A stretch of DNA of 44,007 nucleotides from an uncultured Planctomycetia bacterium (lineage in GTDB: Bacteria > Omnitrophota > Gorgyraeia > 2-02-FULL-51-18), in assembly GCA_964543965.1 (NCBI GenBank), contig CAZJAX010000001.1:1-44007 (forward strand). The letters run 5' to 3'. The translations under genes were made by a program, and so were the position numbers. Positions within the stretch are counted from its first letter, which is position 1. Every line of letters begins with the position of its first letter. Under the pieces are notes generated by a model. The model was not told where the DNA came from and did no database searches. It saw only the letters and a list, made by a program, of their open reading frames with translations. Of the stretch, positions 1 to 43,794 are shown piece after piece.

Positions 1-582
<582 letters not shown>

Positions 583-592
583 GGGATATCCG

Positions 593-853
593 ATGAGTCT
601 AGCCTTTGATCTCAAGGTCGTGACGCCCGACGGCGTGGCCTTTCAAGGCCAGACGATTTCCGTTGTCGCGCCAGGGACTTTGGGGTATCTTGGAATCCTC
701 AAGAACCACGCCCCGCTGGTCACCTCGCTGGAAAAGGGCAACCTGACCTACAAAGACGAGGCCGGCGCTGTCCGTACGATGAAGATCGAAGGCGGCTTCC
801 TGGAAGTGCAGAAGAACCGGGTGTTGGTCTTAACAGATAAAGTAAGCGTATAA
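593..853 (+). CDS. atpC: F0F1 ATP synthase subunit epsilon, short form (86 aa, beta-sandwich domain only)
   Basis: It lies 10 nt after atpD. GILKNHAPLVTSL and GGFLEVQKNRVLVL match the epsilon N-terminal domain. There is no C-terminal helical hairpin. Confidence 0.8.
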   Translation: MSLAFDLKVVTPDGVAFQGQTISVVAPGTLGYLGILKNHAPLVTSLEKGNLTYKDEAGAVRTMKIEGGFLEVQKNRVLVLTDKVSV

Positions 854-877
854 AAGTTTTGCGGTCATAGCTTAGCT
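853..877 (+). repeat. Direct repeat copy A: 8 nt of flank plus tRNA-Asp nt 1-17 (orphan tRNA 5' fragment)
   Basis: 25/25 identical to 1173-1197. The two sequences diverge immediately afterwards (TCC versus GGC). Confidence 0.9.
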
Positions 878-881
878 TCCG

Positions 882-900
882 CCTGCCGCGCGGCGGCAGG
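882..900 (+). repeat. GC-rich hairpin CCTGCCGC-GCG-GCGGCAGG at the left border of the cassette
   Basis: Perfect 8-bp stem with a 3-nt loop. It shares the core CCTGCCG/CGGCAGG with the palindrome at 43429-43442. A second hairpin, CCTCATC-GAA-GATGAGG, lies at 911-927. Confidence 0.7.
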
Positions 901-944
901 ACGGACCCGTCCTCATCGAAGATGAGGCGGGGGCTGAAGAGATT

Positions 945-1190
945 ATGTATTACGTGTATGTTTTAATTAGCAAGAAAAACGGTAAAAGATATACTGGTTA
1001 CACGACAAAATTACCGGAGCAAAGGCTTAAGGAACATAATCAAGGCCTGAATACTTGGACTAGTCAGAACGGTCCATTTAAACTTTTGTATAGTGAGAGT
1101 TATTCTTCCGGACACGCGGCGCGAAAGAGAGAAGTTTACATGAAATCCGCCGCTGGAAGAAGATTTCTTGATAAAGTTTTGCGGTCATAG
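945..1190 (+). CDS. Small stand-alone GIY-YIG (URI-domain) nuclease family protein, 81 aa
   Basis: MYYVYVLISKKNGKRYTGYT...RLKEHNQG contains the GIY-(10 aa)-YTG motif and a conserved downstream R..EHN. Low GC. The stop codon TAG lies inside tRNA-Asp (nt 8-10 of the tRNA). Confidence 0.8.
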   Translation: MYYVYVLISKKNGKRYTGYTTKLPEQRLKEHNQGLNTWTSQNGPFKLLYSESYSSGHAARKREVYMKSAAGRRFLDKVLRS

Positions 1191-1197
1191 CTTAGCT
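1173..1197 (+). repeat. Direct repeat copy B (flank plus 5' end of the intact tRNA-Asp)
   Basis: 25/25 identical to 853-877. Confidence 0.9.
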
Positions 1198-1258
1198 GGC
1201 TTAAAGCGCCGCCCTGTCACGGCGGAGATCGAGGGTTCGAATCCCTTTGACCGCGCCA
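1181..1258 (+). tRNA. tRNA-Asp (anticodon GTC)
   Basis: The cloverleaf can be read by eye. Acceptor stem GCGGTCA/TGACCGC, anticodon arm CCGCC-CTGTCAC-GGCGG, T loop TTCGAAT, and an encoded CCA. Confidence 0.9.
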
Positions 1259-43350: not shown

Positions 43351-43407
43351 GGAACCGTTCAAAGCCAAACTCTCCGAAGTTTCTGATATAATATAAAACT
43401 TAATCAC

Positions 43408-43426
43408 AAGTTTATTCCCTGGTAGC
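43408..43426 (+). repeat. Direct repeat copy A (8 nt of flank plus tRNA-Asn nt 1-11); tRNA nt 11-20 recur at 43442-43451
   Basis: 19/19 identical to 43711-43729. CTCAGCTGGT at 43442-43451 equals 43729-43738. Confidence 0.9.
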
Positions 43427-43428
43427 CT

Positions 43429-43442
43429 GCCTGCCGGCAGGC
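43429..43442. repeat. 14-nt perfect palindrome GCCTGCCGGCAGGC splitting the orphan tRNA-Asn 5' fragment
   Basis: Read directly. It shares the CCTGCCG/CGGCAGG core with the hairpin at 882-900. Confidence 0.85.
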
Positions 43443-43457
43443 TCAGCTGGTGACGCT

Positions 43458-43667
43458 ATGTATGTGTATGCATTGCAGAGCATTAAAGATAAAAATTTGT
43501 ACATCGGGCTTTCTCAGGATCCAAAGAGAAGATTAGACGAGCATAATTCAGGACAAAATAGATCTACAAAATCTAGAACTCCTTTTTGCCTCATCTATAT
43601 AGAAAAATGTGAAAATAGAAAGCTTGCTAGAAAAAGAGAATTAGAGTTAAAATCAGGCTCTGGTTGA
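43458..43667 (+). CDS. Small GIY-YIG nuclease family protein, 69 aa; C-terminus cut by an in-frame TGA relative to its paralog at 945-1190
   Basis: MYVYALQSIKDKNLYIGLS...RRLDEHNSG matches the GIY-YIG core. Read past the TGA, the frame continues EFLKHLTKL, which parallels RRFLDKVLRS in the paralog. Confidence 0.7.
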   Translation: MYVYALQSIKDKNLYIGLSQDPKRRLDEHNSGQNRSTKSRTPFCLIYIEKCENRKLARKRELELKSGSG

Positions 43668-43710
43668 GAGTTCTTGAAACACCTCACCAAATTAAATCCA
43701 ATAATATAAA

Positions 43711-43729
43711 AAGTTTATTCCCTGGTAGC
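43711..43729 (+). repeat. Direct repeat copy B (flank plus 5' end of the intact tRNA-Asn)
   Basis: 19/19 identical to 43408-43426. Confidence 0.9.
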
Positions 43730-43794
43730 TCAGCTGGTAGAGCGGTTCGCTGTTAACGAACATGTCGTAGGTTCGAGTCCTACCCAGGGAGCCA
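43719..43794 (+). tRNA. tRNA-Asn (anticodon GTT)
   Basis: Acceptor TCCCTGG/CCAGGGA, anticodon arm GTTCG-CTGTTAA-CGAAC, T arm GTAGG-TTCGAGT-CCTAC, and an encoded CCA. Confidence 0.9.

Follow-up and report, generated by a model that had tools for sequence, protein, structure and literature searches.

We analysed a 44,007-nt stretch of DNA (hereafter the window) from an uncultured bacterium that is labelled Planctomycetia and placed by GTDB in the Omnitrophota, near the start of which a small stand-alone gene for a GIY-YIG nuclease lies between atpC and an intact transfer RNA (tRNA) gene for aspartate. This gene, together with the repeats and hairpins around it, is the element described here, and all window positions refer to the forward (+) strand. 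The open reading frame (ORF; 945..1190) encodes 81 amino acids and reads into tRNA-Asp(GTC), a gene with encoded CCA at 1181..1258 (ARAGORN; Rfam RF00005, 69.1 bits), where its TAG stop (1188-1190) is formed by tRNA nt 8-10. The 25-mer AAAGTTTTGCGGTCATAGCTTAGCT occurs in two copies that are identical at 25/25 positions, and no third match was found in the 44-kb window even at 3 mismatches, for which shuffled sequences give an expectation of 0. The left copy (853..877), which we call the orphan, consists of the 8-nt native leader AAAGTTTT and pseudo-tRNA-Asp nt 1-17, and the right copy (1173..1197) is the leader and nt 1-17 of the intact tRNA as well as the last five codons and stop of the ORF. 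Because the tRNA spans 1181-1258, the repeat amounts to 8 nt of leader plus tRNA nt 1-17 and ends before D-loop G18 G19. An earlier note on this DNA, made from the sequence alone, had described both copies and the end of the ORF within the repeat and tRNA, and these details were exact. We considered the shared stop as a special feature and rejected it: about one third of the relatives described below also stop at tRNA nt 8-10, which is the level that chance gives for stopless ORFs reading into a tRNA.

Directly after the orphan come two GC hairpins, which together we term the double hairpin. Hairpin 1 (878..905) has the outer stem TCCG/CGGA and a perfect inner stem at 882-900, and hairpin 2 (906..932) has the outer stem CCCG/CGGG and an inner stem at 911-927; the shorter hairpins reported previously are the perfect cores of these longer ones. 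The predicted DNA fold of 853-947 has an energy of -26.8 kcal/mol (z = -4.2). A 12-nt spacer, GGCTGAAGAGAT (933..944), follows as a degenerate continuation of tRNA-Asp from nt 18 onwards (GGCTTAAAGCG..) and is likely the ribosome-binding region of the ORF. The ORF is AT-rich, as had been noted, with a G+C content of 39% compared with 54% for the window and 55% for atpC, which suggests a foreign origin. An Rfam search at E <= 10 over 700-1500 returned the tRNA as its sole match, with no intron or riboswitch around the ORF, and a promoter and terminator scan of 600-1500 gave nothing that exceeds shuffles. There are no terminal inverted repeats at 878/1197, and within the 320-bp element (878..1197, defined below) the nuclease is the sole ORF, so that genes for an integrase or any other recombinase are absent. 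A transcript of 853-1262 is predicted, in its minimum-energy fold, to pair the acceptor strand of the orphan (861-867) with the 3' acceptor strand of tRNA-Asp, which encloses the whole element as a giant D-loop insertion; this model suggests that the orphan could compete with tRNA-Asp folding.

The protein matches the Pfam GIY-YIG family (PF01541) over residues 1-69 with E = 8e-16 and 58.5 bits against a cut-off of 22.6, so the assignment proposed in the earlier note stands. Residues Y5, Y16, G18, R27, H31 and E63 of the catalytic site are invariant in 37 aligned sequences, including both GIY-YIG ORFs of the window (the second is described below), and from these residues the nuclease looks active. 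A profile of 10 sequences matches 1zg2 (E = 1e-10) and 1ywl (E = 3e-9) and, more weakly, the SLX1 nuclease domain (E = 0.008); the closest solved structures are the UPF0213 proteins BH0048 (1zg2) and EF2693 (1ywl). Both its family similarity and its build, a single domain of 81 residues where the range is about 80-110, are those of UPF0213 / COG2827. No second domain or DNA-binding module was detected via Pfam, NCBIfam (nothing above cut-off), PHROGs or PADLOC, and a look-up of the exact protein returned no record. A role as a defence system was rejected, a PADLOC match being absent.

Empty sites in a near-clonal population

Exact-sequence look-up of the upstream AtpC returned three short metagenome contigs (L056, L057 and L058) whose encoded AtpC is identical to that of the window. 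In each of them an intact tRNA-Asp follows 7 nt after atpC, the 25-mer is present once, and the hairpins and ORF are absent, which is the empty site that the earlier note had proposed looking for. With 878-1197 removed, the window is identical to L057 over 654/654 nt and to L058 over 459/459 nt, and L056 matches the window from position 70 up to the tRNA, bar one base. The missing 320 bp (878..1197, or equivalently 853-1172, owing to the 25-bp repeat) represent an insertion/deletion polymorphism of a population that is near-clonal apart from them. The insertion divides the ancestral tRNA-Asp gene after nt 17, in the D-loop, as the earlier note had anticipated, and the 25-bp duplication rebuilds an intact tRNA-Asp directly 3' of the ORF, leaving the native 5' end upstream as the orphan. 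Presence/absence polymorphism of this kind is expected of a free-standing homing endonuclease gene, and it is found at the window site (L057, L058).

A further ORF-less tRNA-Asp, in L069, has another upstream context and the same leader, AAGTTTT. Because this leader precedes tRNA-Asp in ORF-less L056-L058 and in the different context of L069, it is native to tRNA-Asp, and we rejected AAAGTTTT as a component of the element on the evidence of these four contigs.

The DNA on the 3' side of tRNA-Asp varies as well. In the window it forms a 126-nt hairpin with 28-nt arms (1257-1382; RNA fold z = -7.6) that is unique in the window; in L056 and L058 the same stretch holds two different long hairpins resembling bidirectional terminators, and the L058 sequence rejoins the window near 1417. 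Because the 126-nt hairpin is replaced in both contigs, this side of tRNA-Asp is a second hypervariable spot. Fragments resembling tRNA-Asp lie downstream of the ORF-less tRNA-Asp genes (L056 ~1195-1324, L069 1500-1680, L058 ~470-520); that of L056 includes inverted CTTAAGCGCCGC..TCGAATCCC with a CCGCC-ACA-GGCGG hairpin, and GGCGGCGAATCCCTT motifs are repeated among the fragment examples. They may have been left behind by earlier elements or belong to an RNA that has so far gone unrecognised. Within the tRNA itself, nt 66 (window 1248) is T in the window and L058 and C in L056 and L057, where it produces an A7.C66 mismatch in the acceptor stem; two more distant loci (L059 and L060, below) have G7-C66. 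This variant could be a footprint of allele recombination inside the tRNA gene. Positions 252-320 of L056 differ from window 1-69 (atpD) at 18/69 positions and are followed by ~860 identical nt, and this switch is a sharp recombination boundary within the population.

Related loci and their tRNA genes

The two closest protein relatives (L059 and L060; 74% and 71% identical) also lie between atpC and tRNA-Asp. In L059 the native leader AAAGTTTT stands before the orphan, and ACAATATT takes its place before the ORF-proximal copy. In L060 the atpC stop and the ORF start overlap, the leader of the intact tRNA is different again, and after the intact tRNA come a copy of tRNA nt 11-17, a double hairpin and nt 18-76. 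Because these leaders differ, the orphan is the native remnant, and the ORF-proximal tRNA end appears to travel with the ORF. Whether the replacement 5' half was carried or copied had been left open in the earlier note: a replacement end is present, and the leaders of L059, L060 and L069 favour a carried one for the family, whereas the window's own copies fit either origin alike. The ratio of nonsynonymous to synonymous divergence (dN/dS) between the three ORFs at this site is 0.12-0.13 with synonymous sites saturated, and the AtpC proteins of the window and L059 are 62% identical. Judged from these comparisons, the ORF is shown to be under purifying selection with its catalytic residues intact. 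The element at tRNA-Asp is either a long-term resident or a repeated re-invader, and in both cases its protein has been kept functional.

A profile search, with one genome per species, yielded 55 related loci that span at least six phyla; by the labels of their metagenome-assembled genomes (MAGs), the hosts are Omnitrophota, many Patescibacteria lineages, Chloroflexota/Dehalococcoidia, WOR-3, Planctomycetota and others. At 37 loci a same-strand intronless tRNA (Asn, Lys, Val, Ile, Met, Ala, Pro, Arg or Gln) starts ~-40 to +210 nt from the ORF stop. Six more have a downstream tRNA-Asn with a group I intron, which ARAGORN missed and we identified by eye, one has a downstream tRNA cut by the contig end, and in 7-8 the intact tRNA immediately precedes the ORF, which is followed by a pseudo-3' part; at four the contig end is too near to tell. 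All 51 testable loci of the 55 are linked to a tRNA in this way. An orphan copy of the local tRNA was present on the far side of the ORF at 35/39 scored loci (best ungapped score >= 10), with a mean score of 16.9 against 6.8 and 7.7 in control regions. The earlier note had suggested asking whether every small GIY-YIG ORF sits 5' of a tRNA with a duplicated 5' fragment: the near relatives are indeed all tRNA-linked with orphans, but the ORF is not always on the 5' side, and distant UPF0213 members are not all linked to tRNAs. The note had also held that its insertion proposal would fail if relatives showed the repeat without the ORF, and no such relative was seen.

Three arrangements recur. The orphan 5' part can be followed by the ORF and then the intact tRNA, as in the window; the mirror image has the intact tRNA first, then the ORF and an orphan 3' part; and in the third, both orphans flank the ORF and intact tRNA. 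Tandem forms were found at several loci: L059 has a second orphan and hairpin copy after the ORF, at the contig end; L002 has a remnant of an ORF 3' end located 5' of the orphan; in L023 a unit made of an ORF 3' end and an orphan 3' part occurs twice; L026 has two orphan 3' copies; and L040 has three orphan 5' copies. At the tRNA-Lys loci direct repeats bound units of ORF plus tRNA. These last repeats would suit a small circular cassette integrated by recombination at a tRNA-derived attachment site, with the 5' half of the tRNA used instead of the 3' half, and so would the outcome in general, in which an intact tRNA is regenerated beside the element and a partial copy is left at the far end. 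We regard such a cassette as scarcely credible, given a 320-bp element without recombinase, repeat ends that vary and the lack of a conserved attachment core across loci; recombinase-type integration, as stated, is excluded by the lack of a recombinase gene in the element.

The ORFs group by tRNA identity in a rough neighbour-joining tree, with a switch now and then; members of one Patescibacteria clade are found at Ala, Asn, Met and Ile genes. More distant UPF0213 homologues have mixed contexts: P0035 occupies a stable non-tRNA context in 23 contigs, and another homologue lies 31 nt 5' of tRNA-Ile. Because of these mixed contexts, the tRNA habit belongs to the clade and not to the whole UPF0213 family. 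In a Bacteroidota-type contig, a 44%-identical GIY-YIG ORF lies between, and overlaps, AlbA_2 and HATPase_c_4/HTH (helix-turn-helix) ORFs (L062 672-2297, L063 137-1750). We take these domains to belong normally within one protein, and the GIY-YIG ORF appears to be an insertion that splits a protein-coding gene. No relatives of the ORF were found among IMG/VR viral contigs, and a phage vector was rejected on that ground.

The group I introns mentioned above sit in the downstream tRNA-Asn and not around the ORF, and they are themselves ORF-less (L006 2704-2939, L008 3294-3571, L017 1555-1826, L038 1406-1648, L039 3342-3573, L050 3273-3600). Their hosts are Omnitrophota, WOR-3, Planctomycetia-labelled and Patescibacteria MAGs, and L010 and L017, whose ORFs are near-identical, differ in having the intron. 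The layout of these loci resembles the 'collaborative homing' of a free-standing endonuclease and an intron, a likeness that we draw by analogy. At six Patescibacteria loci (L007, L020, L026, L028, L037, L044) the intact tRNA downstream of the ORF, tRNA-Lys or, in L037, tRNA-Asn, has a leader and trailer of 12-17 nt that are mutually complementary and lengthen the acceptor stem (cctaacatctctttggt / accaaagagatgttagg in L026). The acceptor strand of the outermost orphan 3' end in L026 is TGGGCGC, compared with CGGGGGC in the intact tRNA; this difference suggests that the intact tRNA is cargo and not a copy of the resident gene.

A second, independent element of the same design, though diverged, occupies 43388-43794 of the window, directly 5' of tRNA-Asn. 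Its left repeat (43388..43426) comprises ATAATATAAA, a 10-nt indel and AAGTTTAT plus pseudo-tRNA-Asn nt 1-11; a single GC hairpin, AGCCTGCCTGCCGGCAGGCT (43424..43443), interrupts the pseudo-tRNA, which resumes with nt 10-20 at 43441..43451. The GIY-YIG ORF follows at 43458..43676 (tblastn E = 6e-14, 44% identical to the first), and the right repeat, 43701-29, runs into an intact tRNA-Asn(GTT) at 43719-43794 (ARAGORN), the two together covering 43701..43794. As called, this ORF has 69 aa and ends at an in-frame TGA at 43665-43667, with homology running on to 43676; the TGA replaces an Arg of relatives (GSG*EFL vs AAGRRFL), L061 has the same sequence, and the copy may be C-terminally truncated. 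A look-up for an empty tRNA-Asn site gave just an identical occupied copy, L061. The second hairpin has CCTGCCG..CGGCAGG in common with hairpin 1 of the first element, and hairpins of this form occur in the window at the two elements only. The possibility raised in the earlier note, that the repeat might be a general intergenic one, was rejected for both the 25-mer, which occurs twice, and this hairpin motif. The window's two other tRNAs have no such ORF adjoining.

The distribution of relatives also bears on whether the gene moves at all. It could be a long-resident nuclease gene, retained by the host on tRNA promoters and co-transcribed with the tRNA, whose repeats and pseudo-tRNA pieces are relics of old rearrangements and whose ORF-less counterparts arose by deletion between the 25-bp repeats. 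Such a history agrees with the strongly purifying selection and the saturated synonymous positions seen at one conserved site beside AtpC proteins that are just 62% identical, with the ability of perfect 25-bp repeats to delete precisely and with the stable contexts of distant UPF0213 genes such as P0035. We nonetheless think it very unlikely that the gene is now immobile, given an ORF composition foreign to the host, a patchy distribution across phyla and ORF clades that track tRNA type rather than host alone. The switches among Ala, Asn, Met and Ile within one clade, the tandem arrays and mirror forms by which closely related loci differ, the relative that splits a protein-coding gene and a repeat that is perfect despite the age of the ORF lineage count against it too.

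The double hairpin and a proposed mechanism

Across the 55 loci we counted 61 double hairpins, nearly all within ~400 nt of an ORF, and at most loci a conserved GC hairpin pair interrupts the orphan. The consensus, TCCGCCAGAGGCGGA joined to TCCGCCTCTGGCGGA, is a perfect 30-bp palindrome built from two 15-bp palindromes, the loop of the first hairpin being purine-rich and that of the second pyrimidine-rich. In each stem, covariation is seen at the three outer base pairs (UA with CG, CG with AU); the hairpin set was chosen for pairing, so the pairing statistics are partly circular and the covariation alone is informative. In the window and its closest relatives the hairpins are longer and nested, with the outer stems TCCG/CGGA and CCCG/CGGG kept and the inner stems variable and covarying; hairpins homologous to those of the window occur in this form in L059, L060 and L008. 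The window hairpins are a conserved double-hairpin module and not incidental.

The position of the hairpins within the tRNA copy differs among loci: they follow nt 17 at Asp, Ala, Pro, Met, Val, Ile and some Asn loci, nt 8, 12 or 29 at others and the anticodon (nt 36/37) at all tRNA-Lys loci, and they lie in the T arm at mirror-image Val loci. The pseudo-tRNA usually continues 6-17 nt past the hairpins before the ORF start, with exact matches in L009 (nt 18-33) and L034 (nt 18-28). The pair ends 10-29 nt before the ATG or, in the mirror form, starts 9-25 nt after the ORF end. Multiple pairs are present within one orphan in L003, L015 and L007, and L053 is a relative showing no hairpin. Solo 30-nt double hairpins were also observed in frame within protein genes, one in a DnaJ gene (L026 4770-4799, encoding SAQGGPASGW in the G/F region) and one in a UvrC-like gene (L013 1024-1053, encoding PSAKGGSAPG); because these solo copies sit in genes, the hairpin unit can move or be copied alone.

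Such behaviour invites the view that the 30-bp palindrome is itself the primary mobile unit and the binding site of a nuclease that would cut ~8-15 nt to either side, the ORF having inserted beside a hairpin already present in a tRNA copy and the solo hairpins being non-autonomous copies. The abundance of double hairpins close to ORFs, the perfect palindrome with covarying outer stems, the short distance to the ORF end in both arrangements, the orphans with several pairs and the in-frame copies in DnaJ and UvrC-like genes all agree with this, and SLX1-related GIY-YIG domains cut branched DNA. The population empty sites, in contrast, are hairpin-free, which implies joint gain or joint loss of ORF and hairpins; only one hairpin is present in the second window element and none in L053, and the circularity of the pairing statistics applies here as well. 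On balance we judge a palindrome-first origin to be unlikely.

We suggest instead, with a probability of roughly 0.6, that a GIY-YIG gene and a GC double hairpin here make up a miniature selfish element that resides in tRNA genes and is of the free-standing homing-endonuclease type. The features that define a mobile ORF, namely an endonuclease ORF, a replacement gene end and a native remnant, are all found, in the orphan and regenerated tRNA of the window and in the leaders of L059 and L060. In the mechanism we propose, the nuclease would break tRNA-coding DNA at a loop-coding position, and an occupied allele would serve as the template for repair. Homology on the two sides would be supplied by the orphan and the intact tRNA, and the ORF, hairpins and replacement tRNA end would thereby be copied in. 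The outcome would parallel that of fungal mitochondrial mobile ORFs, in which a gene end is replaced and the native end left. With the essential tRNA regenerated, insertion would be close to neutral for the host, and the conservation of tRNA sequences among phyla would make the target site available in many hosts. Tandem arrays, and also clean losses that restore the empty site, would then follow from unequal recombination between the repeats, and breaks in the regenerated tRNA, if repaired from the neighbouring orphan, would likewise give the tandem arrays seen. The double hairpin would mark the position of the break, and its role is probably either to abolish the target in the orphan or to act as the binding site of the nuclease itself. 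A nuclease that binds the palindrome and cuts nearby would explain why the hairpin pair lies 10-30 nt from one ORF end in both arrangements.

Several observations weigh against a homing-type element. The 81 residues are filled by the catalytic domain, and the DNA-binding module for long recognition that is typical of homing endonucleases was not found; to our knowledge, every characterised GIY-YIG homing endonuclease has a DNA-binding domain. Hairpins interrupt the orphan, yet an intact tRNA is regenerated beside the ORF, so any putative target lying wholly within the tRNA would be kept there, and it is not obvious how self-cleavage is avoided. The window repeats are identical, leader included, and they fit an end that was carried, copied on insertion or altered by later gene conversion equally well. 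The empty sites could be precise deletions and not naive targets, and saturated synonymous divergence together with 62% AtpC identity also fits ancient vertical inheritance of a host-retained gene. Finally, the boundaries of the repeats differ among loci, the left end falling at ~-21 to +1 and the right end at nt 11 to 37.

These variable ends led us to reject a fixed-length target duplication, and they bear on a further possibility, namely transposition-like insertion with a long target-site duplication produced by structure-specific nicks in a cloverleaf extruded by the tRNA gene. One nick would fall in a loop (nt 17/18 or 36/37) and the other, on the opposite strand, near the base of the acceptor stem; the element would be joined in, and fill-in synthesis would duplicate the 12-45 nt between the nicks. 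Such a route agrees with the window repeat, an exact copy of local sequence that takes in the native leader, with right ends at loop-coding positions, with left ends near tRNA +1 and with the resemblance of the nuclease to structure-specific enzymes of the SLX1 type. We consider it quite unlikely all the same: terminal inverted repeats and a joining enzyme are absent and the repeat length is not fixed, the pseudo-tRNA runs on past the hairpins, and the ORF-proximal leaders of L059 and L060 differ from the native one, which simple target duplication would not give.

Beyond the homing-type element that we prefer, a broader reading is possible and is put forward tentatively: the GIY-YIG gene and the 30-bp palindrome would be a hitherto unrecognised two-part mobile system of uncultivated bacteria that takes its specificity from DNA structure, remodels tRNA genes and scatters hairpins. 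Specificity would come from the carried palindrome or cruciform, or from the cloverleaf extruded by tRNA-coding DNA, with cutting at a set distance; tRNA genes would be split, duplicated and replaced, and non-autonomous hairpins would spread into genes. In a still bolder version, a transcript of the orphan tRNA piece and hairpins would guide the nuclease to matching tRNA genes.

Small genes for a 'GIY-YIG nuclease family protein' are annotated beside tRNAs in thousands of genomes and bins, where they have been left unexplained, and they now gain a testable identity as ~0.3-kb mobile elements that would colonise tRNA genes and yet preserve them. Their pseudo-tRNA fragments and tandem arrays can confuse tRNA annotation. 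They also raise a question of enzymology, that is, how an 80-residue catalytic domain without a DNA-binding module finds one kind of gene. The conserved 30-bp palindrome that forms the double hairpin may represent a new cis-acting site. [quoted passage not shown]

Comparison with known systems

In the literature on GIY-YIG and tRNA genes, pseudo-tRNAs, Patescibacteria, Omnitrophota and free-standing endonucleases, we did not find this element described. Integrase-borne islands and prophages also target a tRNA gene, regenerate an intact tRNA and leave a partial duplicate, and the earlier note had accordingly called the element a mirror image of integrase targeting. The outcome is alike, but because there is no recombinase the analogy does not extend to mechanism, and forms with the ORF 3' of the tRNA exist as well. 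Such islands use a tyrosine or serine recombinase, take the 3' part of the tRNA and measure kilobases, whereas the element is ~0.3 kb, has the nuclease as its sole ORF and usually duplicates the 5' part; we therefore rejected an integrase-type tRNA island. An insertion sequence or miniature inverted-repeat transposable element (MITE) was rejected too, as terminal inverted repeats are absent and the extent of the repeat varies by locus, and so was a GIY-YIG gene encoded by a group I intron, the Rfam search having given the tRNA only.

The nuclease shares sequence family, size, single-domain build and catalytic residues with UPF0213 / COG2827 proteins and the SLX1 domain. We know of no mobility ascribed to UPF0213 / COG2827 proteins, and the more distant members sampled differ from those described here in that they are not generally linked to tRNAs. 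We also know of no nuclease gene associated with Rickettsia palindromic elements, which differ from the double hairpin in size, sequence and hosts. Those elements are palindromic insertions in frame within genes and have been reviewed with prokaryotic MITEs (PMC10969869), and in being in frame they resemble the solo 30-nt double hairpins of the DnaJ and UvrC-like genes. GIY-YIG genes have been reported among the genes for which Patescibacteria are the predicted donors and other bacteria the recipients (PMC12455944).

Another architectural counterpart of the double hairpin is found in the mitochondria of chytrids and fission yeast, whose double-hairpin elements (DHEs) are described as potentially mobile in a passage of PMC10085805 that cites Paquin and Lang 1996 and Paquin et al. 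2000. Like the bacterial units, DHEs are short and G+C-rich, consist of two adjacent stem-loops, and recur at many sites, either intergenic or within RNA genes. They too show conservation between species and are suspected to be mobile, and the genomes that harbour them also contain GIY-YIG mobile ORFs. The likeness is one of architecture; the bacterial units are near-perfect 30-bp palindromes (longer and nested in Omnitrophota-type loci) and are tied to one nuclease family.

SegB of phage T4 is a much larger protein than the 81-aa nuclease and binds DNA through a separate region. It is a free-standing GIY-YIG homing endonuclease in a tRNA cluster, with a 27-bp site that includes the tRNA TpsiC motif (PMC2330249), and intronless and collaborative homing by free-standing endonucleases have been described more widely (PMC3984707). 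The mechanism proposed above follows the reasoning behind intronless homing. SegB and the element have in common a free-standing GIY-YIG gene among or beside tRNA genes, a conserved tRNA motif being part of the SegB site, and, as proposed for the element, the inheritance of the gene together with flanking tRNA sequence after cutting of an allele that lacks them. SegB is a phage protein, however, and its homing makes no partial tRNA duplication and involves no hairpin module.

The closest analogue of the tRNA element, by our comparison, appears to be the fungal mitochondrial mobile ORF (mORF), as in atp6 of Allomyces macrogynus or the atp6/atp9/cox2/nad3 hybrids of Glomus, which on insertion brings its own version of the gene end with it, the native end staying behind as a remnant (PMC3630166). 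In both, an endonuclease ORF lies at the end of an essential gene with a replacement end, the native end is left non-functional, presence or absence varies between close relatives, and the replaced part can differ from the native remnant. They differ in that mORFs are mitochondrial, target the 3' end of protein-coding genes and often form in-frame fusions, whereas the element occupies tRNA genes of bacterial chromosomes, in most cases replaces the 5' end (with 3' forms known too), encodes only ~80 aa and has its remnant interrupted by a conserved palindromic double hairpin. The element would thus be kin to the free-standing homing-endonuclease and mobile-ORF elements, and unusual among them in its RNA-gene targets on bacterial chromosomes, its minimal nuclease and its dedicated palindromic double hairpin. 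The strategy of replacing a gene end and leaving a remnant, so far one of fungal mitochondria, would in this way be extended to bacterial chromosomes and to RNA genes.

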